A stretch of DNA of 23,951 nt from a virus, in IMG/VR virus record IMGVR_UViG_3300023082_000001, positions 1-23,951 of that record, one strand, 5' to 3'. The notes beneath the pieces were generated by a model. That model had not been told where the DNA came from and did no database searches. It was given only the letters and a program-made list of their open reading frames with translations. Positions 4,300 through 22,170 of this stretch are shown one piece after another (the stretch's first letter is position 1; the number at the start of each line of letters is the position of its first letter). The translations under genes and the position numbers were made by a program.

Positions 4300-5421
4300 T
4301 CAGTCAGTGATTTCTACTTCGTATCTATGGAGTGCTTCATACACACGATTATCAATAAGGTGTTTGTACTTTTCAGCTTGTCGTTTGATTATAACTTCTT
4401 TGTTTACTTTATACCAATTAAAACACTCTTCAATTGTCCCTCCACCACAACCCGTAATACGCTTGCCAAGGTCTGGATCACAAACACTAGCGTGCAGGCT
4501 CCAGTTGCCCTGCCGGGTTTTATACCGCATCACACCAATTGGATAATCTCCACGTCCAGCTTCCCTCTTAGTAAATAGGGCGTTTAACTGGCTTGGCACG
4601 TAAGCGCAAAACTCAGGTGAGTACACCTTATTACCTTTGCAAATAATATCTTTGTCTAATTGCCATCTAGGTGTCCTTGAACCCATTTGATATTTTGCCC
4701 ACTCATAAAAATTTGCAAAAGTGTACCACTCTTCTGTAATACTGCACTGTCTGTACGTTGGTCTTTTATCTAATGCTTTGGTAACATGAACTCGCTCTAT
4801 CATCCCTGACCATGTCATGTAAATAGGTTTGCATGTGTGCCAATCATCTGAAGGCTCTCCATAACAACCAACACCATATACGCTTTTATGGTAAGGGTTA
4901 GCAATCTGACCTAACTTACAGCTCTGTTGAGTTGTTTTTACCCTTCCTTTGAACTCATCCAAAAATTCAACAGTTAGATTGGAGTGCTTTACATATTCTA
5001 CTATTTTTACTCTATAACCTTCATTGGTGTCAAATTCATCCCCTACACAAACAGAAGGAGCATATCCAGGTTTCTTATGTGTACAGCCACAGCACCTTGT
5101 GCCTTGCCTCAAAGATTTTATCTGATGCTTTACAATATTGCCACAGGCACATTCTAGCAGAAACATTCTTACAGGTGCCTTACCTGTAGTTTTTGGTTCA
5201 ATTTCTTTGATAACAGACAACTGCCCAAATTTATACCCTTCTTCAAAAATTTCACGAGTTGGTTTCCTGTAACACAAACACATACGAGTTTTCAAACTGT
5301 CTTTGCGAACCCTACTTAGATGATCTCCACAGTCTGCGCACTCAGCTTCAACATATTTATGATTCTTTTCCTCAATTTCTGAGTAAATTTTCCATCTACT
5401 ACTATCGATATCCATAATCAC
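4300..5421 (-). CDS. HNH-type homing endonuclease
   Basis: FGQLSVI..LECACGN zinc module, YMTWSGMIER, EEWYTFANFYEW, WQLDKDI..GNKVYSPEFCAYVP..LN, YPIGV C-terminal DNA-binding region. Confidence 0.8.
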   Translation of the reverse strand: MIMDIDSSRWKIYSEIEEKNHKYVEAECADCGDHLSRVRKDSLKTRMCLCYRKPTREIFEEGYKFGQLSVIKEIEPKTTGKAPVRMFLLECACGNIVKHQIKSLRQGTRCCGCTHKKPGYAPSVCVGDEFDTNEGYRVKIVEYVKHSNLTVEFLDEFKGRVKTTQQSCKLGQIANPYHKSVYGVGCYGEPSDDWHTCKPIYMTWSGMIERVHVTKALDKRPTYRQCSITEEWYTFANFYEWAKYQMGSRTPRWQLDKDIICKGNKVYSPEFCAYVPSQLNALFTKREAGRGDYPIGVMRYKTRQGNWSLHASVCDPDLGKRITGCGGGTIEECFNWYKVNKEVIIKRQAEKYKHLIDNRVYEALHRYEVEITD

Positions 5422-11292: not shown

Positions 11293-11322
11293 GTCAATCA
11301 CCTATGTGTTGTGTATGGCATG

Positions 11323-11351
11323 ATTTTATCTGAGGATAGTGCTGTGTGCAA
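11323..11351 (-). promoter_or_regulatory. sigma70-like leftward promoter
   Basis: TTGCAC-17-TAAAAT. Confidence 0.6.
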
Positions 11352-11419
11352 GGGGAATTTGAGATTATTTTTAGGAGGGCATCATAGATGCTGTTGGATA
11401 TTATTTGTGAAGAAAGGGG

Positions 11420-11447
11420 TTGACGTGGGGAGAAAGCGTGGTATTCT
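11420..11447 (+). promoter_or_regulatory. sigma70-like rightward promoter
   Basis: TTGACG-16-TATTCT with TG extension. Confidence 0.55.
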
Positions 11448-11618
11448 GTGTCTTATCTGTGGGAGAGCAGTAAGGTTTCTTTGGAGAAAGTACCGAGTAG
11501 CAAGGGGTACAAACCCATATAAACCGTGGGCTGTAGGCTAGTTTGTGTACTGGAATACATGTATCTAGTATCACCACTATCTATCTACTAATATTTACAA
11601 CCAATAGGAGGAGAGTAG

Positions 11619-12977
11619 TTGATTTATGAATTAAGTAAGATGAAAGAATCAGAAGTATATTCTACTAATCTAAGATGTGTAAGAAGCTATATTTATTATC
11701 ATGAATCTAAATACTACAAGAAGATAGTAGATCATATACTAGAGCATACAGAGGAAAGATGGGAAGAAGCAGTTAGATGGTGGATAAGTAATAGTGCTCG
11801 TGCCATTAAACATAAGGCTACTGGATTTGTATTTAGCTTAGATAAGAATACATATACCAAATCTGTTCAAGGTATTGGATACAGGAAAGTTAAATCTTTA
11901 GTTGATTTTCTTGAGCAAAAGGGTTATATTGATCTTTATAAAGGTTATGTGAAGTCTTGGAAAACAGTTAACGGTAAACCAAAACCTGATGTTGTTGTTC
12001 CCTCATGCCTGATATTTCGTAAGCGAACACTAGATATGTGGGAAGGAGTGGACGTTTCCTATAACCTATGGCGAGACCTTGAAGAAAGTGATCTTGCTAT
12101 CATTCGTAATCGGGAGACTAAAGAATTAATGTCTACTCGTGGTCACAAAGGTTTTAAAGATATCAAATCTGAGGTGAGGAACATGAATAACAGTTTGGAA
12201 GGTGCAGACATTACATTCGATGGTAAGCCAATTGCTGATGTTGCATATCGTCGTATCTTCAGTGGTGATTTGGATAAAGGTGGTAGACTGTACACGCTCG
12301 GTGGTGGTGTCCAACTTCTTCCACAACACATTAGGGCATCGTCCTTAAGGATTGATGGTGAAGCTGTAGTTGAGCTAGACTACTCAGCTATTCACCCCAG
12401 TATCTGCTACCAACAGATGTATAATAACGATGGCTTTAATATTTATGATGTAATGGGAACTGAGTTCTCCCCTTATGATGCTGACTTATCATTCGTTAAA
12501 GTGGATGAGAAGCTAAAAGATCAATGGGAAACATTGACGGGTAAGAAGCACAATCCTAGGCGTTCACTGGCAAAGCTTGGAATTCTTATTGGTATGAATT
12601 CCGACGATATGAACAGCGCAGCGTGGACACTTGGTAACAAGGTGAAGCTTGACAGAGAGAAAGAGGTGGAAGACCAAGAGTTTTATGCTTTAGTTGGTAA
12701 GACAGACTACGGTAAAGTGTTAGAAGCTGTGAGAAGCCATAACGATTTTATTAGAGATATGTTCTTTAATGATGGCGGCATTATGCTTCAGAATATTGAC
12801 AGCAAGATTATGATGAACATTGTTGGTGCAATGGGTGAGAAAGGTCATGCTGTTTTAGCCTATCACGACAGTGTTTTGGTTAAGGAGTCAGCAGAAGATG
12901 ATTTGAGAGAAGCTATGTTTACAGCATGGAAAACAGTCTTAAGTGATACAACATTTTGTAAGGTGGATAAGAAATGA
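11619..12977 (+). CDS. Minimal family-A DNA polymerase / T7-RNAP-like fold protein
   Basis: DKGGRLY (DxxGR), VVELDYSAIHP (motif A), RRSLAKLGILIGMN (motif B-like), LQNIDS, YHDSVLV (motif C); TTG start after AGGAGGAG. Confidence 0.7.
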   Translation: MIYELSKMKESEVYSTNLRCVRSYIYYHESKYYKKIVDHILEHTEERWEEAVRWWISNSARAIKHKATGFVFSLDKNTYTKSVQGIGYRKVKSLVDFLEQKGYIDLYKGYVKSWKTVNGKPKPDVVVPSCLIFRKRTLDMWEGVDVSYNLWRDLEESDLAIIRNRETKELMSTRGHKGFKDIKSEVRNMNNSLEGADITFDGKPIADVAYRRIFSGDLDKGGRLYTLGGGVQLLPQHIRASSLRIDGEAVVELDYSAIHPSICYQQMYNNDGFNIYDVMGTEFSPYDADLSFVKVDEKLKDQWETLTGKKHNPRRSLAKLGILIGMNSDDMNSAAWTLGNKVKLDREKEVEDQEFYALVGKTDYGKVLEAVRSHNDFIRDMFFNDGGIMLQNIDSKIMMNIVGAMGEKGHAVLAYHDSVLVKESAEDDLREAMFTAWKTVLSDTTFCKVDKK

Positions 12978-13168
12978 AAATCAATATTGAAGATGTCCTA
13001 GCAGCACAAGCTGTCCGACACGAAATAAACAATCAGGATATTTATGGCATTGAGTGGTATCAAGATGGTAAAAAGCTAAATATTCCAGACTCAGTATTAG
13101 AATCTTGGAGATTCACTGGATTGTCCAACACTGATTTTGTTAACTTTTGTTTGGATGAGATTGAATAA
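12974..13168 (+). CDS. Hypothetical protein
   Basis: 64 aa; ATGA overlap with the polymerase-like gene. Confidence 0.65.
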   Translation: MKINIEDVLAAQAVRHEINNQDIYGIEWYQDGKKLNIPDSVLESWRFTGLSNTDFVNFCLDEIE

Positions 13169-13181
13169 TATAAAATAACAC

Positions 13182-13210
13182 TTGACACGTCCGCGTGTCA
13201 TTGGTAATAT
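13182..13210 (+). promoter_or_regulatory. sigma70 promoter overlapped by an inverted repeat
   Basis: TTGACA-17-TAATAT with TG extension; TGACACG-N4-CGTGTCA at 13183-13200. Confidence 0.65.
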
Positions 13211-13246
13211 CTATTAATCAAACAAAACTAAATTAAGGAATTAATA

Positions 13247-13456
13247 ATGTCACGCTGTCTCTGCTGCAACATTGAGATGAAGTGGAGAGATTTTAAAATG
13301 TTGCAGGATGATGGTAGTGAGGAAAATCTTTGCTCAAGTTGTCTTTCAATTGCTTACTCCCCAAATCATTGCAAAACCCATTTTTATCAATTTGAAGATA
13401 TCACTGAGGTATTTTTTGATGAAGGCATCACTAGACCTAAGCTATTAAACGATTAA
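13247..13456 (+). CDS. Small zinc-ribbon protein
   Basis: RCLCCN...LCSSC; AAGGA SD. Confidence 0.7.
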   Translation: MSRCLCCNIEMKWRDFKMLQDDGSEENLCSSCLSIAYSPNHCKTHFYQFEDITEVFFDEGITRPKLLND

Positions 13457-13459
13457 TGC

Positions 13460-13488
13460 TTGCAATATGTTATAATATACGGTATAAT
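13460..13488 (+). promoter_or_regulatory. sigma70 promoter(s) for the ncRNA/tRNA island
   Basis: TTGCAA-17-TATAAT (13483-13488), plus TGtTATAAT at 13468-13476. Confidence 0.7.
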
Positions 13489-13492
13489 TATT

Positions 13493-13815
13493 TGCCACTT
13501 GTGTTCTGGGTGGTGAAAAAAGAATTCCCTTACGTGATATGGCACAACTTTGGCGATTTCCATATGCTTGTCGGCAGGGTGAGAAGTAAGAGAATAAAAA
13601 GTTAGGAATATCTGTTCTGTAAAGACAGATTCATTGAATACTTATTTGGCCTCCGTAAGTTAGTAGGTGATGTGACATTCCTGATAAGCCGTCTTATAAG
13701 AAACAGTACACAAACCCATCTCGCTAACGTTTGTGTGTATGCTTTGCAAGGTGCAAGATAGGGCGTAAAATAATAGAGTATTCTATCAATTCCGCCGTAG
13801 CCCGCACATGCGGAA
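13493..13815 (+). ncRNA. Putative structured RNA leader with tRNA fragments
   Basis: No ORF in the track; several hairpins containing G-U pairs on the + strand (see findings). Confidence 0.4.
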
Positions 13816-13823
13816 CTAATTAT

Positions 13824-13899
13824 TGGCGATTAGCTCAGTAGGTAGAGCGAGTGACTGTTAATCACTATGTCCCAGATTCGAGTTCTGGATCGCCAGCCA
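13824..13899 (+). tRNA. tRNA-Asn (GTT)
   Basis: Acceptor TGGCGAT/ATCGCCA, D-stem GCTC/GAGC, anticodon arm AGTGA-CTGTTAA-TCACT, T-arm CCAGA-TTCGAGT-TCTGG, G73 and encoded CCA; 76 nt. Confidence 0.95.
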
Positions 13900-13965
13900 A
13901 GCATGCAGTTCGATTCTGCTCGTTAGCTGAGGGTTGGTACGAAATTGGGTTCGATTCCCTGATTA

Positions 13966-14217
13966 TCCGTTTGGTGACGGAAGCTTGACTGATGGAAAGA
14001 CATCATTAATTCTAGTTTCACCCAGCACAGAGCCAGAAGTAAATTCTACATAAATCTGTGTTGTCCTCAAACCAACAACATTTTCTCTCCTCCTATCTTC
14101 AGTGTTGTCGGTTTATTGTGTCTTCTAAGTTGCTATCTCCCGATTTAGAAGACATTTCTTTAAGTGCTGTTTATCGCTCAGCGAACACAATCTAATTGTA
14201 CCCTAACAGCCTTTAAA
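13966..14217 (+). ncRNA. Putative sRNA 1 (19-nt motif plus anti-SD loop hairpins)
   Basis: Stems 14023-31/14055-63, 14069-80/14103-14 (loop contains CTCTCCTCCTAT), 14119-32/14141-54 (loop CTATCTCC), 14166-71/14205-10. Confidence 0.5.
13986..14004 (+). repeat. 19-nt repeat TGACTGATGGAAAGACATC, copy 1
   Basis: Identical to 16315-16333. Confidence 0.9.
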
Positions 14218-14246
14218 TAAGTGTATGCACACATAGGAAATTAATC

Positions 14247-14636
14247 ATGGCTAACAAGACTCCTAACAAAGACACTAGATTTGATGGTCCTAAGTCAAAT
14301 CGTAATACAAAAAATAATAGTAAGGTTCGCATCACTAAGTCCAAACTTCGAGCTACTGCCGAAAAGCTTAGAGAAATCGAGCCTACTGCACTTGAGAATA
14401 TAAAGAAAAGTGTAGAAGGTGATAAGGTTGAGCAACAGCAATTGGATTCTTCCAAGTGGATCGTGTCTAGCATCATTGCGCTAGACCGTGCAGCCTCACA
14501 GGAAGAAGCATCTCTTACTAAGATTCGTCTTGAAGGCAAGCGTGATGAGTCTGAGGAAGATGAAGAAAACGTTGCAGAGATTGTAAAGCTTGTGCCTAGG
14601 TTGAAGCTTACGTTTGATGAGCCTGAAGAAAAATAA
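14247..14636 (+). CDS. Putative terminase small subunit
   Basis: 129 aa; basic N-terminus (TRFDGPKSNRN...), helical core, acidic stretch and terminal beta-strand (PRLKLTF); upstream of terL. Function inferred only. Confidence 0.45.
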   Translation: MANKTPNKDTRFDGPKSNRNTKNNSKVRITKSKLRATAEKLREIEPTALENIKKSVEGDKVEQQQLDSSKWIVSSIIALDRAASQEEASLTKIRLEGKRDESEEDEENVAEIVKLVPRLKLTFDEPEEK

Positions 14637-14654
14637 TAATAAAAGGAAACAACA

Positions 14655-14819
14655 ATGAACCTCATTCTAATCCTATTGATTTTACTTCTCCTACTCCCAG
14701 CTTTGGGTGTGTACACAGTTGCCGTAAGTTTTGGATTGGTAATCAAGATCCTTTTGGTTATTCTCATTGTTGGCCTGATTTTGAATGTGCTTGGTGGCAA
14801 TCGAAACTTTTGGTTTTAA
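14655..14819 (+). CDS. Small two-TM membrane protein (54 aa), absent from the ORF track
   Basis: MNLILILLILLLLLPALGVYTVAVSFGLVIKILLVILIVGLILNVLGGNRNFWF; AAGGA SD. Confidence 0.75.
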   Translation: MNLILILLILLLLLPALGVYTVAVSFGLVIKILLVILIVGLILNVLGGNRNFWF

Positions 14820-14936
14820 ACAAATAGTTTTTAAATTTAAACTATTCAAATTACTCTTGATGATAGAGAGATATAAGAATAGGAAATGAATCAAGATTGT
14901 CTGGTAATACCACAATAATTAAAAAACGGATGCACT

Positions 14937-16220
14937 ATGACACCAGATGAGAAGTACACAATAATTTCAAGGGTTGGTCCAGCTGCTGCTGCCCTATCTG
15001 GTGTCTACGGAGACGATCAGCTCGATACATATAAGCTAACCAAGAATCTTTTTGGTAGATTTAAAACTGTAGCACCTTCAACAGATCCTATTACCTTCAA
15101 TATGATGACAGAAGTTGAAACTGACTTTATGTCTGTACGTATTGCTATTCCAAACCTGCATACAAGTGCTGTGGCAGGCGTTAAGGTTAGCGTCTCTGTC
15201 TCATCTGAAAACTTTGTAGAAGACTTTGCAACAAAGGTTGATTCTGTTAATGGAAGCCCTTGGATTGATGCAACGTTCAAAGGAGCTACTTCAGTGAGTC
15301 TTCCTGTAGCCCTAGGAACGGATCGTCCATCTTGGACTTACACCGACATTATCCCTGTTCAAAGTGTCCCCACTACAAGCACAACACGTACAAAACCTTT
15401 TCTTATGGTGAGGATTGAATATCCTGCCAATAGCACTCTGACATGTCCTTACAATGATATCTATTTTTGGCGCACTATTGGTGTTCATCCAACATTGCGT
15501 GTAGCTCAACAAAATGTTCTTGGTGTCACCACTAAAAGTTCGTTCACACAATTTATCACAAGTGATACAAATGTAGTTGTTCCAGCATTCGAATACAATA
15601 CATCTGTACTAGGTAAGCAAGTTGTAATGTGTGGGGATAGCACTGTTGCAGGACAAGGAAGTCAAGTTAGAGACTTTGGGGCTGTCCAACGTGCTTGTGT
15701 CAAAATGAGCAGCAAATCATCTCCTATTGAATACTTCAATACAGCCAAGCTTGGATTAGGTCCAGCCGAGTATTCTAAAGGATTGATAGACGTTATCACT
15801 GAAGTGGCACCAACAGATGTTTTCTATTCCCCATATTCTGTAAATGATACTGACACAGGTGGATTGTCTGCCTTACAAGTTGGCAGAGTTTATGGATATC
15901 TTGGCTACGTTAACTCCAATATTGATGCACACAAAACTAATCTGTTTTTGCTGGAAGGATTGCCCTGTAATCCAACATTCAGAGATACAGGTGCTGGGGA
16001 TAGCAAACGGCGAGATATCAACGTAGCAATTAGTAAGTATAAGTTTGCAACTGTTGTTAAAGATTATGCCAAGGTGGTTAGTGGCAATATTGATGCAGAT
16101 GGACAAACCCTAATCAAAGATGGATATGATTCAGGAGATGGGGTCCATCTCACCGATGCAGGCTATGATTCCTTAAGTGATCAGATTACACCTTACTTTA
16201 AGCCTTATAACGTGGCTTAA
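14937..16220 (+). CDS. SGNH/GDSL hydrolase domain protein
   Basis: CGDSTVAG (block I), FNTAKLG (II), YSVND (III), DGVHLTDAGY (V); beta-rich N-terminal domain. Confidence 0.8.
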   Translation: MTPDEKYTIISRVGPAAAALSGVYGDDQLDTYKLTKNLFGRFKTVAPSTDPITFNMMTEVETDFMSVRIAIPNLHTSAVAGVKVSVSVSSENFVEDFATKVDSVNGSPWIDATFKGATSVSLPVALGTDRPSWTYTDIIPVQSVPTTSTTRTKPFLMVRIEYPANSTLTCPYNDIYFWRTIGVHPTLRVAQQNVLGVTTKSSFTQFITSDTNVVVPAFEYNTSVLGKQVVMCGDSTVAGQGSQVRDFGAVQRACVKMSSKSSPIEYFNTAKLGLGPAEYSKGLIDVITEVAPTDVFYSPYSVNDTDTGGLSALQVGRVYGYLGYVNSNIDAHKTNLFLLEGLPCNPTFRDTGAGDSKRRDINVAISKYKFATVVKDYAKVVSGNIDADGQTLIKDGYDSGDGVHLTDAGYDSLSDQITPYFKPYNVA

Positions 16221-16224
16221 TATG

Positions 16225-16558
16225 TGAGTGGAAAGAATCAAGTAGTGATGCTTGGTATCGAACTGCCTAGTTCGTTTGCTCGACTCATTCTGGCGGATGA
16301 GGTTGTAAAATAAATGACTGATGGAAAGACATCGTTGTGGAGAAGCTGAGTAAATCTTGTACTCAGAGAGCTGTCAGGTCAGGTTAAGATTGTGGACGCT
16401 GGCACAACTATTCACGTAAGTACACTACGGACACAGTGATGTGTCTCCTCCTAACGTTATAGCCCAACGTGTGTACTAGGGCTAACTAATTAGATTTTAC
16501 ACAGGCTAGGCTGTCCTTTAAAAGCCGTCGCAGTCTGTACGGCTATATAAATCCTAGC
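16225..16558 (+). ncRNA. Putative structured ncRNA island 2
   Basis: Three-way junction with a GTGA tetraloop, 19-nt repeat, two loop-loop complementarities, anti-SD tract. Confidence 0.55.
16315..16333 (+). repeat. 19-nt repeat TGACTGATGGAAAGACATC, copy 2
   Basis: Identical to 13986-14004. Confidence 0.9.
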
Positions 16559-16601
16559 AAGACACCTAAAAAATAAATATTAAAATCAAAGGGTGTTTGT
16601 A

Positions 16602-16892
16602 ATGGCGGATTCGCTAAATGATGTTTTCTTGACAACCAATACTTGGGTAGATTTGTATAATCTTACGGGTATTGCACCGGGAACATCTTTGATCGTAAAC
16701 AACAAATCTTCTGCTACAGTTTTTCTATTGGTGCGTCCAAGTCAACCCGTAGGAACATCTAATGATGGTTGGCCCCTTCGGGCTGGTAATCTGGATGGTA
16801 ATTGGACTGTTGTTGAAAAAGTGCCAGCTTCAAGTAGAGTTTGGGCAAAAGGATCAACAGGTGGTCGTCTCTTTGTAGAAACTTACGAATAG
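16602..16892 (+). CDS. Small beta-rich putative virion protein
   Basis: Start likely ATG 16602 (MADSLNDV); co-oriented directly upstream of the fibre gene. Confidence 0.65.
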   Translation: MADSLNDVFLTTNTWVDLYNLTGIAPGTSLIVNNKSSATVFLLVRPSQPVGTSNDGWPLRAGNLDGNWTVVEKVPASSRVWAKGSTGGRLFVETYE

Positions 16893-16903
16893 GAGATTAG
16901 ACT

Positions 16904-19138
16904 ATGTTTATTCCAAACAGAAATAAAACTACAGTTATTGAAGGTGAAGGCAATGACCTCTCAATGTGGCCGATTGATCAGTTGCCCTACAAAGCAGCCG
17001 ATGGGACTATCCAAGGTAGTGGCGTAAGAGTTCTGAGTTCCGGCACTCTTTTAGCCCCTGTAGGGTTTGCCGTAGAATCAGGTAGTGTGGACTTTGGTGA
17101 TGTAATTAGGCTTTCTGAGTCTGCTGGATTTCTTGCCTTTGAAAACTTAGTTGATAATATTAAGTATCAATTGGTTGATTACGCAACACCGAGAGACTCA
17201 GCCTCATCTAAACCTTACTATTTTTATCTCAAGGCTGCTGAAAGACGTGCTGATGCGCAGCCTAATGGTAGCATCACAATCTCGACTAATCCGCTCACTT
17301 TTGACTATACAACTCAATTCACAGCCCGTACAAATGCTTTGGTGTTCACAGCAACAGGCCCAATGACCAATGTGCGCCTTAGAATTACGGATAAGAAGAG
17401 TGGGGTAGCAATCAAGTATTTCCCCTCTAAATCTTCTTGGGTCACGGGAGAGAAAGGGACAACATTTGATGTTGGTGAAAACGTAATTGATTTCCAAGAT
17501 ACTGCCGTAATCTTTCAAGCTGGTACAGATATTGTTTTTGATATTCAAGCTGATCAAATGTATCTTGCTGGCAATAACGGCGTACCTAAGTTTTCAGGAA
17601 TCATTCAAGAAGGTATTTTCATTGGAGTAGCAGATGAAAATGATCTGGGTACACTTAGGGAGCAAGTGGAAGCTATAGGCGATGGTTTTTCTGGTAAATA
17701 CACTGATTTAACTGATGTTCCAGCTACGTTCGCACCATCACCACACACGCACCAGATTACAGAAGTAGAAGGTTTAGAGGCTCAATTAACCACAGTAAAT
17801 ACTGATATTAATTATCTGAAATCCCAAGCATCCAGTTTGGCTTCGGTGGCTTCAACAGGCAGTTATACAGACCTCATCAACAAGCCCTCTATACCAACAG
17901 CTACTAATCAACTAGATAACAATAGTGGTTTTATTACGATAGAGCATACGCATCCCATTTCAGATGTCGTTGGTTTACAAAATGCCCTTGATTCAAAGCT
18001 TGCAAGTAATGCGAATATTTCAGCAACTCATGTAACAGGTTTATCAAACGTAGCTTTGACGGGATCATACACAGACCTTAGCAATAAGCCAGTTTTCCCA
18101 AGCAAGATAAGTGATTTTGAAAATGATTCGGCTTACATTACTTTAGCACAAGTACCATCAGTTTCAATTAGCTGGGCTGACATTCAGAACAAACCCTTAA
18201 CCTTTGCGCCTTCTACACATAGTCACCCTATTAGTGATATTGCAAATCTTCAAGCAACCCTTGACGGCAAGCGTAATTCATTAGATCCAATTGCATACTC
18301 AAGTTTGACAGGGCTGCCTAGTCTGTTTTCAGGTGCTTATAATGACTTGACTGGCAAGCCAACACTGTTTAGTGGCTCTTATAGTGATTTGATTAATAAG
18401 CCCATCTATGCAACCGTTGCATCCACTGGTAGCTACACGGATCTTACGAACAAACCTGTAATTCCTACTGTAAACTATCCGGTAACGTCTGTTGCGGGGA
18501 GAACAGGAGCAATTACCCTTTCTGCTACAGATATTAGTGGCTTAAGTAGTGTTGCAACATCTGGGGCATACTCAAGTCTCACTGGCTTGCCAACTATCCC
18601 GGCAGGACAGGTTAACAGCGATTGGGCAGCAACAAGTGGTCTTAGTCAGATTCTGAACAAGCCTGCATTGTTCTCAGGTTCTTGGAATGACCTAACAAAT
18701 AAACCGACAACGTTTACACCATCAGCCCACACTCATCCAATCAGCGATATTACTAACCTTCAGTCAACTTTGGATACAAAGATTACAGCTGCAACATTGC
18801 CTATTACAAGGCGTGTTAACAACACAATCGTTGACAGAACAAAAGTTAAATATTACACAGTGGTAAGTGACAGCACATCGTCTGTTTGGACTGTAACAAC
18901 AGGCACAGACTTTACAGAAATTCTTGATGTTCAAGTGCAACCTGTGAGTACAGCTAACACAGTGGGTGGTATTAGGCAAGCAAGCCTTAATGCTTACACA
19001 ACAACAAGTACCAGCCTCACCGGCGTCACCTACGGTAACTCTGTATTGACAACAGTTCTAATCGGTGTTGGTGCCAATACTTTAAGTCTTCTGCCGAGCA
19101 CTACAGTTAGGGTTCGTGTTGAGGGTGTTGGATCGTAG
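16904..19138 (+). CDS. Fibre-like protein with phage-tail repeats
   Basis: Four H-x-H repeats (e.g. HTHPISDVVGLQNALD) and about ten (T/S)GSYxDLxNKP-type repeats. Confidence 0.75.
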   Translation: MFIPNRNKTTVIEGEGNDLSMWPIDQLPYKAADGTIQGSGVRVLSSGTLLAPVGFAVESGSVDFGDVIRLSESAGFLAFENLVDNIKYQLVDYATPRDSASSKPYYFYLKAAERRADAQPNGSITISTNPLTFDYTTQFTARTNALVFTATGPMTNVRLRITDKKSGVAIKYFPSKSSWVTGEKGTTFDVGENVIDFQDTAVIFQAGTDIVFDIQADQMYLAGNNGVPKFSGIIQEGIFIGVADENDLGTLREQVEAIGDGFSGKYTDLTDVPATFAPSPHTHQITEVEGLEAQLTTVNTDINYLKSQASSLASVASTGSYTDLINKPSIPTATNQLDNNSGFITIEHTHPISDVVGLQNALDSKLASNANISATHVTGLSNVALTGSYTDLSNKPVFPSKISDFENDSAYITLAQVPSVSISWADIQNKPLTFAPSTHSHPISDIANLQATLDGKRNSLDPIAYSSLTGLPSLFSGAYNDLTGKPTLFSGSYSDLINKPIYATVASTGSYTDLTNKPVIPTVNYPVTSVAGRTGAITLSATDISGLSSVATSGAYSSLTGLPTIPAGQVNSDWAATSGLSQILNKPALFSGSWNDLTNKPTTFTPSAHTHPISDITNLQSTLDTKITAATLPITRRVNNTIVDRTKVKYYTVVSDSTSSVWTVTTGTDFTEILDVQVQPVSTANTVGGIRQASLNAYTTTSTSLTGVTYGNSVLTTVLIGVGANTLSLLPSTTVRVRVEGVGS

Positions 19139-19757: not shown

Positions 19758-20720
19758 TTGAATTACGAAAAGATTTACAACGCACTTGTAGAAAAAGCTA
19801 AAGTTCGTGGGTTAGATAAAAGTAAGGACTCTGGCTATTATGAGATTCACCACATTCTTCCGAGATGTTTGGGAGGGTCTGACCATAAAAGTAACCTAGT
19901 GATGTTTACGGGAAGGGAACATTTTATTTCACATATGTTGTTGTGGAAGATGTACCCTAGAAATTCTGATCTTATGCACGCAGCATGGATGATGAGCCAT
20001 ACTCGTAAAGGTTATAAAGTTAATTCAACGACTTATGAAGCTCTCAGTATTGACCACTCTATTTGGCTTTCTGAAAGAATGGGAGGGATAAACAGCCCTC
20101 AATTCAAGGACTTGACAGGTCAGCGAAATGGTAAACTAGTTGTACTTGAACATGTAGGCTGGAAACTGCTTAATAATGGGTTCAGTACATCTACTTGGCT
20201 ATGCCAATGTGACTGTGGAAATTTCAGAACTCTCCAATCTAAAGAAGTTAGCCTTTCTTGTAAATCATCTTATAAGTCTTGCGGTTGTCTTACTGCTGAA
20301 GTCTCCTCATTGAGGGTTGGTGATAAGAATGCTTTCTACGGAAGGACTCATTCAGAAGAATCAAAGGCTAAGATGGCTGAAAAGAAATTTGGGCGTTCAC
20401 CTTCTAACAAAGGTGTAAAAGGAACTCCAGAGAAAAGTCAAAGAATTAAAGATAGTTTGTCAAAAATTAAAAGATTTTCTTGGTTGCACCCCTCTATTAC
20501 ATCAGACCCAGTAAAGACTGAGATGTGGAAGATGGCAATGTTTTATTACGACCTTTATCTTACTAATACAATTTTGACAAAAGCAAAGTTCACAACACTT
20601 TACAATAAACTCTATTGTGATGATATACCTTCATCGGCTCTCTATATTATGCACGATAAATTCTCTGGCGGTTGGGTTCCTTTAGAAGACAGCGAGTGGG
20701 TTAAATTTTCTAAAGGATGA
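19758..20720 (+). CDS. HNH homing endonuclease with NUMOD3-like motif
   Basis: EIHHILPRCLGGSD..NLV..GREHFISH; DLTGQRNGKLVV..CQCDCGN; NAFYGRTHSEESKAKM. Confidence 0.85.
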   Translation: MNYEKIYNALVEKAKVRGLDKSKDSGYYEIHHILPRCLGGSDHKSNLVMFTGREHFISHMLLWKMYPRNSDLMHAAWMMSHTRKGYKVNSTTYEALSIDHSIWLSERMGGINSPQFKDLTGQRNGKLVVLEHVGWKLLNNGFSTSTWLCQCDCGNFRTLQSKEVSLSCKSSYKSCGCLTAEVSSLRVGDKNAFYGRTHSEESKAKMAEKKFGRSPSNKGVKGTPEKSQRIKDSLSKIKRFSWLHPSITSDPVKTEMWKMAMFYYDLYLTNTILTKAKFTTLYNKLYCDDIPSSALYIMHDKFSGGWVPLEDSEWVKFSKG

Positions 20721-20724
20721 ATTA

Positions 20725-22170
20725 ATGAAAGATAAAAAATTACCGGGTCCAATTTCAGAACGTCAGCGAATGTATGTCACTGCTGATGTGGATGTGACCC
20801 TATATGGTGGTGCGGCTGGATCTGGAAAAAGTGAAATTGGCGTAATTGATTTTCTCAAGTATACCGACATCCCTAATTTTATCGGTGTTATGACTCGAAG
20901 AAACACCCCCCAGTTGACCGGGCCCGGTGGTTTGCTAACTAAGTGCAAAAGGATATTTGCTCAAGCTTACGATCCTGATGAATATACATGGCGTGCTAAA
21001 GATGGTAAGTTTGTCTTTCATAAATCTGGTGCGGAAATATATTTAAAACACTTTGAAAATGATCAGAGTGATGTGTCTTGGCAAGGTAGTGAAGCAAATC
21101 TTTTCTACGTAGATGAGGGAACACAGTTCACTCAGCACATGATTCAGTACATCATGTCTCGTATGCGTAATCCTTCGTGTCCTGAAGTAAAGCCTCATAT
21201 GAAAATTACCTGTAACCCTCACAATTCACATTTTTTGAGGAAATGGGTAGAGCCTTATTTGCAAGAGGACGGCACACCAGATAGGAATAAAGACGGAGTA
21301 GTTAGATACTTCTCATTCCAAGATGGTGATTTTGTGTGGGCTGATACAAAACAAGAGCTAGTTAGAGATTATGGCATTCCAGAAGAAGATGCTCTCTCTT
21401 TTACATTCATTAGTGCAACAGTTGATGATAACCCAATCGTTAAGCGCATAAATCCAAAATACGTCGCATGGCTTAAAGGTCTCAAGGGTGTAGAAAAAAG
21501 TAGACTTTTACTCGGAAATTGGTTTGTAAAAGAAAGTTCTGTTGGGTATTGGTCAGAGAAATGGGTAACTCCTGTAAGGCTACATGAACAACAAATAGTG
21601 TCATATTGTAGAGCTTGGGATATTGCAGGCTCTCTTCCCGCAGATGATACACCAAATCCTGACTGGACAGCTGGTGTGTTGATGGCAAAAACAAAAGGTG
21701 GTCGTTACATCATTTGTGATGTTGTCAGATTTAGAGCACGTTATGGTGAAGTTATTAGGCGTATTATTGAGACAGCTGGTGAAGATCCAGAAAACACACA
21801 GATTATACTGCCTCAAGAGCCCGGCCAAGCTGGTAAAGCAGCTGGTCAGATGATGATTAAAGATTTACTTGGTGAAGGATTTTACGCACGTATGCGACCT
21901 TCTAACAAAAGCAAAGTTATTAGGTTTTCTTCTTTCGCAGCAGCTTGCGAAGCGGGGCTTGTAGACTACGTGGAAGGCGCTTGGAACGAAGCTTACTTTG
22001 ACGAATTGGAGCGTTTTGATGGAACCCGCGCTGTAAAGGATGATCAAGTGGACGCCTCATCGGACAGCTTCATAACCTTAGCTCAAAAACTTCTAGTCCC
22101 AAACATCCTCTCCGGTCTTCAATCATTCGGCTTTGAACAAACAAGAAACCCCCTTAACAACATCCGATAA
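20725..22170 (+). CDS. terL: Terminase large subunit
   Basis: Walker A GGAAGSGKS, Walker B YVDEG, TCNP, nuclease RAWDIA and KDDQVDA. Confidence 0.95.
   Translation: MKDKKLPGPISERQRMYVTADVDVTLYGGAAGSGKSEIGVIDFLKYTDIPNFIGVMTRRNTPQLTGPGGLLTKCKRIFAQAYDPDEYTWRAKDGKFVFHKSGAEIYLKHFENDQSDVSWQGSEANLFYVDEGTQFTQHMIQYIMSRMRNPSCPEVKPHMKITCNPHNSHFLRKWVEPYLQEDGTPDRNKDGVVRYFSFQDGDFVWADTKQELVRDYGIPEEDALSFTFISATVDDNPIVKRINPKYVAWLKGLKGVEKSRLLLGNWFVKESSVGYWSEKWVTPVRLHEQQIVSYCRAWDIAGSLPADDTPNPDWTAGVLMAKTKGGRYIICDVVRFRARYGEVIRRIIETAGEDPENTQIILPQEPGQAGKAAGQMMIKDLLGEGFYARMRPSNKSKVIRFSSFAAACEAGLVDYVEGAWNEAYFDELERFDGTRAVKDDQVDASSDSFITLAQKLLVPNILSGLQSFGFEQTRNPLNNIR

Follow-up and report, generated by a model that had tools for sequence, protein, structure and literature searches.

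A structured RNA between the phage tRNA region and the structural genes

We analyzed the first 23,951 nucleotides (nt) of the IMG/VR record IMGVR_UViG_3300023082_000001, an 89,412-nt phage contig with 127-nt terminal repeats and a G+C content of 40.5%; this whole stretch is referred to as the window. Its plus strand encodes a structured RNA element of about 230 nt (14015-14246), with the phage tRNA region on one side and the opening gene of the structural block on the other. An earlier note on this DNA had singled out one hairpin, a module of this element with a loop rich in C and U, as a 12-nt antisense to the ribosome-binding site of a polymerase-like gene. According to the list of open reading frames (ORFs), the genes of the window are on the minus strand up to position 11301 and on the plus strand from 11619 on.

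The element is preceded on the plus strand by a tRNA-Asn gene (GUU; 13824-13899), called by ARAGORN and matching the Rfam tRNA family at 67.6 bits, and by a tRNA-like stretch (13900-13975) in which two T-arm-like hairpins can be read from the sequence (GCAG-TTCGATT-CTGC and GGG-TTCGATT-CCC) and in which ARAGORN calls no tRNA. This stretch is kept in one of the relatives (L007), where the second stem reads ACCG...CGGT, a compensatory change. Directly downstream are a weak ribosome site, ATAGGAA, and the gene for a DUF5681-like protein of 129 amino acids (aa), the first gene of the structural block (14233-14636 including the ribosome site, with the ATG at 14247; plus strand), which was taken from the ORF list and has homologues in 41 viral loci. 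The DUF5681 link comes from the homologue in L004, which matches the Pfam domain at E=3.8e-7 and aligns with DUF5681 proteins of Pseudomonas phages; a tblastn search of the 129-aa protein against cultured phages found nothing, and an hhalign comparison of alignment A3 with the PAK_P3 protein was not significant. Next in order are genes for an SGNH-type tail protein, a tail-fibre protein, a homing endonuclease and the terminase. One detail of the earlier interpretation has to be corrected: the genes immediately downstream encode the small DUF5681-like protein (14247-14636) and tail proteins, and the terminase gene lies 6.5 kb further on.

A family of related elements

Relatives were fetched through the neighboring genes and not through the loop motif. 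The polymerase-like gene retrieved 7 loci and the 129-aa gene 41 loci, to which one 89-kb Logan contig was added (single loci are denoted by L numbers). The same element is present in about 45 contigs of related, uncultured phages of ~90 kb. About 27 of the 41 loci have, within 350 nt ahead of the 129-aa gene, 7-21 CTCC or CCTC words on the plus strand and roughly no complementary G/A words; where another ORF adjoins the 129-aa gene, the element is found further upstream, directly after the tRNA genes. By comparison, the upstream 220 nt of 46 distant DUF5681 loci average 0.67 C/U words, with fewer than five in every case, so that DUF5681 genes are not generally accompanied by the element.

Megablast of 13200-14950 against cultured phages and blastn of the element of a relative matched only tRNAs, and a single-protein locus search with the 427-aa neighbor found nothing. 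A C/U word-density scan of the phage's own genome did not single out the element, since the ribosome sites of minus-strand genes give similar densities, and a crude search of the genome for hairpins with pyrimidine loops and stems of 6 bp was uninformative, with about one match per 2-3 kb on both strands.

The folds of 19 relatives share one architecture. The element starts with the anchor GUUUCACC and hairpin H1, followed by hairpin H2 with a C/U loop of 12-17 nt, the invariant linker CUUAAAGA, hairpin H3 with another C/U loop, and hairpin H4 with the loop CCUCUCCU; UUUCUUAAG then opens a long hairpin, H5, that is closed by CUUAAGAAA, and after ~20 nt comes ATAGGA or ATAGGT and the ATG. The commonest loop motif is CCUCUCCU, and CUCCUCUCC or UCUCCUCC and CUCCUCC occur as well; the loops in the window are UUCUCUCCUCCUAUCUUC and CUAUCUCC. 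Each folded relative has three C/U-loop hairpins, and across loci the copy number ranges from 1 to 5.

The copy in the window occupies the same place as in the rest of the family (tRNA-Asn, element, gene) and consists of four plus-strand hairpins. The anchor (14015-14022) and H1 (14023-14063), which together span 14015-14063, were delimited by alignment and fold. Hairpin H2 (14069-14114), identified from folds and from homologous hairpins in relatives, is the one originally flagged; its arms (14069-14082 and 14101-14114) enclose an 18-nt loop (14083-14100) with an anti-Shine-Dalgarno-like core, CTCTCCTCCTAT, at 14085-14096. The arms, the C/U loop and the single A-C mismatch were reproduced as first described, with a folding energy of -10.9 kcal/mol and z=-5.3 on the plus strand. 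Hairpin H4 (14118-14155) has 15 bp and the loop CUAUCUCC at 14133-14140, and is homologous to the CCUCUCCU-loop hairpin of the relatives; by a terminator scan, H4 with the following UUUCUUU is terminator-like. H2, with its loop of 18 nt, lacks a U run, and H4 is followed by the conserved H5. H5 (14159-14217), recovered by RNAalifold from a MAFFT alignment of 17 relatives, overlaps the U-rich tract with its 5' arm and ends ~20 nt before the weak ATAGGA/ATAGGT site. Across a 17-sequence alignment that includes the window, the anchor with H1 and the closing hairpin UUUCUUAAG...CUUAAGAAA are invariant or nearly so, GUUUCACC itself being nearly invariant among the 17 aligned relatives.

With H2 and H4 and no H3, the window copy is a reduced two-loop variant of the family. 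Its homology follows from synteny, from the shared anchor, H4 loop core, U tract, H5 and ribosome-site context, from the T-arm region in common with L007, and from the intermediate L035. The latter, the nearest relative, shares the 15-nt loop core TTTCTCTCCTCCTAT with the window but has it on a stem of unrelated sequence (CCAATA/TATTGG), and in H4 shows the compensatory replacement of TAA/TTA by CCA/TGG.

Covariation and coding strand

Folding of 13975-14250 gives z=-3.87 on the plus strand and z=+0.06 on the minus strand. The elements of the 19 relatives reach z values of ~-5 to -8, that is, 5-8 standard deviations better than dinucleotide shuffles, and 78% of their CTCC/CCTC words lie in predicted hairpin loops, compared with 17% in the shuffles. 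When whole elements were aligned with MAFFT, RNAalifold recovered H5 only, because insertions and deletions misalign H1-H4; shorter segments and a covariance model were therefore used. From a sequence-only MAFFT alignment of 11 relatives, RNAalifold recovered H2 and H4, with compensatory changes in 13 of 14 pairs. In this alignment, 83.8% of the cells are paired, against 60% after shuffling and 32-43% when the partners are slid; the covariation score is 0.72, against 0.27 and ~0.1, respectively, and 0 of 500 shuffles reach the observed values. The covariance model built from the 11 sequences (R1) found 17 further members, in which all 14 pairs show compensatory changes. Among single hairpins, homologues of H2 keep the C/U loop on unrelated stems, with compensatory changes in 5/5 pairs; those of H4 have such changes in 8/9 and 9/9 pairs, and R1 aligns the window H4 correctly; in H5 (17 relatives) they affect 8 of 14 pairs. 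The covarying stems, together with the G-U asymmetry and the adjoining tRNA genes described below, support H2 as a functional RNA module of the plus strand.

The earlier note had left room for transcription from the minus strand, on which GGA loops would suggest a CsrA sponge. On that strand, the GGAGG loops could serve as a sponge of the CsrA/RsmA type, or a Shine-Dalgarno (SD) sequence with an ATG could start a mini-ORF. In isolation, H2 is indeed slightly more stable on the minus strand (-13.1 versus -10.9 kcal/mol), where the A-C mismatch becomes G-U, and AGGAGGAGAGAAAATG on this strand is followed by four codons. Taken together, the members of the family outweigh this single pair. G-U and A-C combinations in the stems occur in a ratio of 38:9 in favor of the plus strand; the whole region on the minus strand folds no better than shuffles; all 17 model matches, the flanking tRNAs and the genes are on the plus strand; and the mini-ORF start is missing already from L035. 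Moreover, plus-strand tRNA genes abut the anchor, ending one base before GUUUCACC in L014, L024, L032 and L036, and in L009 and L010 a tRNA-type ...CCA end directly precedes it. The coding strand is accordingly the plus strand, and an origin of the RNA from the opposite strand is extremely improbable.

Matches between the loop and the polymerase-like gene

The proposed target is the gene at 11619-12977, whose plus-strand ribosome site ATAGGAGGAGAG (11604-11615) precedes a TTG start codon at 11619; the site was recognized from the sequence and its conservation in relatives. The 452-aa product has no match in Pfam or PDB and matches 115 Rheinheimera, 99 Vibrio and other gammaproteobacterial phage records. 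DivPolA2 denotes the small, exonuclease-free family-A polymerases of barbaviruses (PMC11348598). The protein appears to fit this family, with which the matches to phage records agree, so that the label 'polymerase-like' was reasonable. A strong SD and the TTG start are kept in all 7 relatives compared. The gene has a long 5' region (11311-11618) after a promoter-like TTGACG-16-TATTCT site, and in L006, L007 and L008 (before position 4501) the sequence upstream of the SD is rich in pyrimidines, for example ctcccctacctctctcctccc in L008.

The exact complementarity is present as reported: CTCTCCTCCTAT occurs once on the plus strand, at 14085-14096, and once on the minus strand, at 11604-11615. 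The 9-nt matches of the loop to the ribosome sites of the minus-strand genes starting at 1087 (AGGAGGAGA) and 8929 (AGGAGAGAA) are also there, as is a 10-nt match of the same polymerase site to a second pyrimidine tract, 'island 2', in which TCTCCTCCTA recurs at 16444. The site is the best start-region duplex of the loop in the genome (-21.4 kcal/mol, followed by one at -19.7 and two at -18.2), in line with its designation as the target. Among all positions of the genome it ranks second in a smooth tail of energies, with sites outside start regions at -22.1, -21.2 and -20.5 kcal/mol. When the 22-nt loop is shuffled, a match of at least 12 nt to any of ~160 start regions arises in 2.1% of trials, rising to 6.9% when shuffling is confined to the flanks of an intact CTCCTCC core; in 10% of trials, matches of 9 nt or longer number three or more. 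Given these frequencies and the second rank, the 12-nt match is mildly unusual and not an outlier.

If the loop were an antisense regulator dedicated to the divPolA2-like gene, with its 12-nt pairing under selection for this one target, this would account for the exactness of the match (P ~0.02-0.07), for its top rank among start regions of a gene that keeps its strong SD and TTG in all relatives, and for L005/L045, where the flank is altered on both sides (CCTTC with GAAGG). The other comparisons weigh against such a role. Covariation of loop and SD across relatives had been named as a check, and over 7 genomes pairs from the same genome are no better than pairs from different genomes (-13.7 versus -13.8 kcal/mol; permutation p=0.55). 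The cross-genome energies depend on the purine-richness of the SD of each gene, and the loop of any relative binds the long purine-rich SD of the window gene about equally well. The exact match shrinks toward the generic SD core, from 10 nt in L011 and 9 nt in L005 to ~6 nt in L007 and L027, and L011/L035 have the same loop with a different SD flank. Furthermore, the energies of the loop with start sites correlate with those of the anti-SD of 16S rRNA at r=0.74. We conclude from this correlation, the absence of co-evolution and the shrinking matches that the loops are generic anti-SD mimics. The 12-nt match, as the strongest case of general SD complementarity, looks largely like a by-product and not a private target, and a regulator devoted to this gene is improbable. 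What stands of the original proposal is a genuine C/U-rich, anti-SD-like loop on the plus strand, one of a conserved set; gene-specific targeting is not supported. More generally, an exact 12-nt match of a loop to an SD can come from generic complementarity.

A possible anti-Shine-Dalgarno RNA or operon leader

The function that we favor, with a probability of roughly 0.45, is that of a trans-acting anti-SD RNA. An RNA of the plus strand spanning ~14015-14246 would be co-transcribed with the phage tRNA region, and tRNA 3' processing would probably generate its 5' end, GUUUCACC. It would comprise H1, two hairpins with G-free C/U loops (three in most relatives), the U-rich tract, and H5 ahead of the first structural-block gene. 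Once released, the free RNA would pair in trans, through its C/U loops, with the purine-rich ribosome-binding sites of many mRNAs and repress them, in the manner of cuckoo/alpha-r14, RNAIII and RsaE. Translation of early and middle genes with strong SDs, including the divPolA2-like gene, would be damped more than that of structural genes with weak SDs. The structural-block genes pair worse with the loop than the remaining genes (Mann-Whitney p=1e-4), and their SDs are also simply weaker. Release and action in trans are suggested by the cuckoo-like design with redundant loops, by the terminator-like H4 with its U tract, and by the tRNA or tRNA-like segments that flank the element on both sides in some relatives; the loop motif is, besides, much more conserved than the downstream ribosome site.

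Several observations weigh against this reading. A general anti-SD RNA would hit the phage as well, given that its own genes carry the same GGAG-type sites; no co-evolution of the loop with the divPolA2 ribosome site was seen across the 7 genomes; and the window copy departs from the three-hairpin family in its two C/U hairpins and its lack of a CUUAAGA-type linker, with an R1 score of 9.6 bits (E=0.29). R1 gives 16.7 bits for L035, and detects neither the window copy nor L004/L051 nor the single hairpins of Pseudomonas phages. H5 is downstream of the putative terminator and yet conserved with covariation, and therefore at least part of the RNA would continue into the mRNA. The element is found directly before the first structural-block gene and never elsewhere. 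In cultured Pseudomonas phages, a single such hairpin is located inside the 5' untranslated region (UTR), between a sigma-70-like promoter and the ribosome site, an arrangement that fits a role in cis at least as well.

It is quite possible that the element acts in cis, as the leader of the late structural operon, and forms the 5' UTR of an mRNA starting after the tRNAs. Such a leader could work in one of three ways: as a set of landing sites for S1 or the 30S subunit that boost the weak ribosome site, as binding sites for regulatory proteins of the phage or host, or as signals for antitermination or the loading of Rho. The loops lack G and are rich in C, which is also true of Rho-loading and S1 sites. 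The position of the element 5' of the first structural-block gene is fixed in all relatives, whichever gene that is; the covarying H5 extends to ~20 nt before the weak ATAGGA/ATAGGT site; and phages PAK_P3 and those of P. gessardii and P. poae have promoter, UUCCUCCU hairpin, ribosome site and DUF5681 gene in this order. The leader reading fits less well with L013, L036 and L047, where a tRNA-like segment is inserted between the element and the gene and processing, if any, would cut the element off the mRNA, or with the resemblance of H4 and its U tract to a terminator. In addition, distant DUF5681 genes lack the element, the far better conserved loop motif does not covary with the downstream ribosome site, and redundancy of this kind, with one motif in two to three loops, is the hallmark of trans-acting anti-SD small RNAs (sRNAs) (PMC4615179). 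Direct pairing of the loops with the downstream ribosome site was considered and rejected (only 3-6 nt can pair, with no covariation). Action in trans and in cis would not be mutually exclusive if termination at H4 is partial.

A further alternative dispenses with mRNA pairing altogether. The loops could imitate the 3' tail of 16S rRNA (CCUCC) and, as a decoy or sponge, soak up a protein that recognizes this tail, such as a host ribosome-targeting nuclease or toxin or a ribosome-maturation factor. An invariant loop motif on variable stems in 1 to 5 copies is the design of the protein sponges CsrB and RsmZ, some loops are CCUCCUUA-like, and toxins that remove the anti-SD exist (PMC12274833). 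However, no candidate partner was identified, the commonest loop is CCUCUCCU and not the CACCUCCUUA of 16S rRNA, and there is no context of defense or toxin genes; we regard a decoy as a remote prospect.

In the form that joins trans action with mimicry of 16S rRNA, this lineage of ~90-kb phages would display a copy of the anti-SD tail in several loops of an RNA cut from a tRNA precursor and thereby globally titrate strong ribosome sites or a factor that recognizes the anti-SD. This extended scenario is speculative and rather unlikely. If true, translation would shift from host and early mRNAs with strong SDs, including that of the second polymerase, to structural genes with weak SDs, and the element would amount to an RNA-based translational timer.

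Other features around the element

A sigma-70-like promoter candidate, TTTGCA-17-TAAAAT, is located upstream of the tRNA gene (13743-13771, plus strand); it matches the consensus at 9 of 12 positions, which is not evidence of function, and a transcript carrying the tRNA and the element could possibly start there. A promoter of the element's own (TTGACT-17-AATTCT at 13983) was discarded, with only 8 of 12 matches and no place in the output of the scan. A short palindrome, CCGCACATGCGG, followed by AACTAATT, occurs upstream of the tRNA-Asn gene in the window (13802-13813) and directly 5' of GUUUCACC in L049, and in L029 the palindrome is ~90 nt upstream of the element; the recurring pair may be a shared promoter, operator or processing signal.

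Just upstream of the anchor, within a 22-nt direct repeat (D3) in common with 16315-16336, is a plus-strand hairpin TGATG-GAAAGA-CATCA (13990-14005). The invariant G-GAAAGA-C loop is found, always on the plus strand, on at least 7 stems (TGATG, GATCG, AACCG, TGCTG, CACAG, TACTAG and TGCTAG), at 13990-14005 and 16319-16334 in the window and at L003:1519-1534, L011:8929-8944, L015:748-763, L037:1917-1932 and L040:2965-2982, usually in the gap just 3' of the 129-aa gene. With its conserved purine loop and covarying stems, this hairpin recalls the protein-binding hairpins of the lambda boxB type.

Island 2 is the plus-strand pyrimidine tract GTCTCCTCCTAA (16443-16454), which in the sequence and fold lies 3' of a small hairpin and not in a loop. 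It was rejected as a second copy of the element: it shares only the GAAAGA hairpin and the 10-nt tract, has no R1 match and folds weakly (16221-16600, z=-1.96 on the plus and -1.56 on the minus strand). L003:1417-3103, in a contig with a 98% identical SGNH protein, has an extra SGNH/GDSL gene of 453 aa, with the GAAAGA hairpin 5' of it, where the window has island 2 (16221-16592), and island 2 may be a remnant left after loss or exchange of this gene.

The large terminase is 51% identical to the terminases of PAK_P-type Pseudomonas myoviruses. Its ORF (20725-22170) matches the PHROG profile only from position 145 and is directly preceded by a NUMOD3 homing-endonuclease gene (19758-20720), so that 19758-22170 looks like a terminase gene split by insertion of an endonuclease; the annotation of PAK_P3 also has a short 'terminase large subunit' piece.

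Comparison with known RNAs

A role is known for only a few of the regulatory RNAs that virulent phages encode, and the band C/D RNAs of T4 and the sRNAs of PAK_P3 have been unexplained for years. The family defined here, represented in about 45 contigs of uncultured phages, is clear in structure, strand and boundaries, and its seed motif can be tested. No phage C/U-loop RNA family of this kind was described in the literature searched, and an Rfam search of 13000-17000 at E<=1 returned no ar14 match and no family for the element of the window. We regard the element as a new RNA family that is well supported and belongs to a functional kind already known.

The T4 band C/D RNAs and sRNA1 and sRNA2 of PAK_P3 resemble the element in that they are phage RNAs encoded next to tRNA genes near the DUF5681/terminase region. 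The PAK_P3 sRNAs are abundant late, at 91-fold and 12-fold over the early level (PMC4933390). The published sRNAs have no C/U loops. The start of sRNA1 (L054:2041-2131, corresponding to PAK_P3 85340-85430), UCACCACACGAA, is similar to the family anchor in L012 and L034 (GUUUCACCACACCACGAA), so that this sRNA may be distantly homologous to the H1 module; sRNA2, which is flanked by two phage tRNAs, contains a T-loop motif of the kind seen in window 13900-13975 (PMC4933390). Short motifs and synteny alone suggest this homology. In PAK_P3, the DUF5681 gene is preceded by a TTGACA-17-TATAGT promoter, then, in the 5' UTR, by a hairpin whose UUCCUCCUCCUU loop has 13 nt, and by the ribosome site; phages of P. 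gessardii and P. poae have the same order, and in vB_PseuGesM_254 and Boevelstad a 12-bp hairpin with a UUCCUCCUU loop occupies the same place, the stems differing by G-U/U-G switches. The PAK_P3 hairpin is single and is neither among the features annotated in the PAK_P3 record nor mentioned in the passages of PMC4933390 consulted. This one-hairpin form in cultured phages (the PAK_P3/KPP10 group and phages of P. gessardii and P. poae), for which genetics and RNA-seq exist, offers a foothold for experiments.

An origin of regulatory RNA from tRNA spacers, as proposed here, has a counterpart in 3'ETS-leuZ of E. coli, which is cut from a tRNA precursor directly after the tRNA 3' end; that RNA, however, is a short sponge for other sRNAs and lacks anti-SD loops. 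The CsrB/RsmY/RsmZ sponges, like the phage element, carry one short motif per loop on repeated hairpins in variable number. Their motif is GGA and their partner CsrA/RsmA, whereas in the phage element GGA is found on the minus strand only and the plus-strand loops have no G. In staphylococcal RNAIII and RsaE, C-rich motifs in hairpin loops pair with the ribosome-binding sites of several mRNAs (PMC4615179). The display in hairpin loops is shared with the phage element, but there is no homology in sequence or structure, the motifs are UCCC and CCCC, and the genes are chromosomal genes of Gram-positive bacteria.

The closest likeness is to the cuckoo/alpha-r14 sRNAs of Alphaproteobacteria (NfeR1, CcsR1-4/RSs0680a-d). 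Members of this family have 2-4 hairpins with one loop motif on variable stems, their redundant anti-SD seeds cover ribosome sites, and NfeR1 represses in this way (PMC4615179, PMC10746234). The phage element likewise has two to four adjacent hairpins with freely varying stems and conserved C/U anti-SD loops, three per relative in the 19 folds, and a terminator-like end. The Rfam ar14 model (RF02344) aligns over its full length with L024, placing two CCUCCUCCC loops on H2 and H3 and the terminator on H4 and the U tract. However, the score of this best relative is 24.9 bits, below the gathering threshold of 58.8, and the phage loops are CCUCUCCU or CUCCUCC in place of a CCUCCUCCC in every loop. 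Unlike cuckoo RNAs, the element is encoded by ~90-kb phages with a TerL closest to virulent Pseudomonas phages, is fused to a tRNA cluster, and is extended by a further hairpin at its 5' end (GUUUCACC-H1) and by a long one at its 3' end that runs into an mRNA. Judged by loop motif and score, it is not a member of this family. Should the loops act in cis, the element would be a new type of late-operon leader; if they act on ribosome-binding sites, it would be the phage counterpart of the alphaproteobacterial cuckoo sRNAs and a simple route to rebalance translation.

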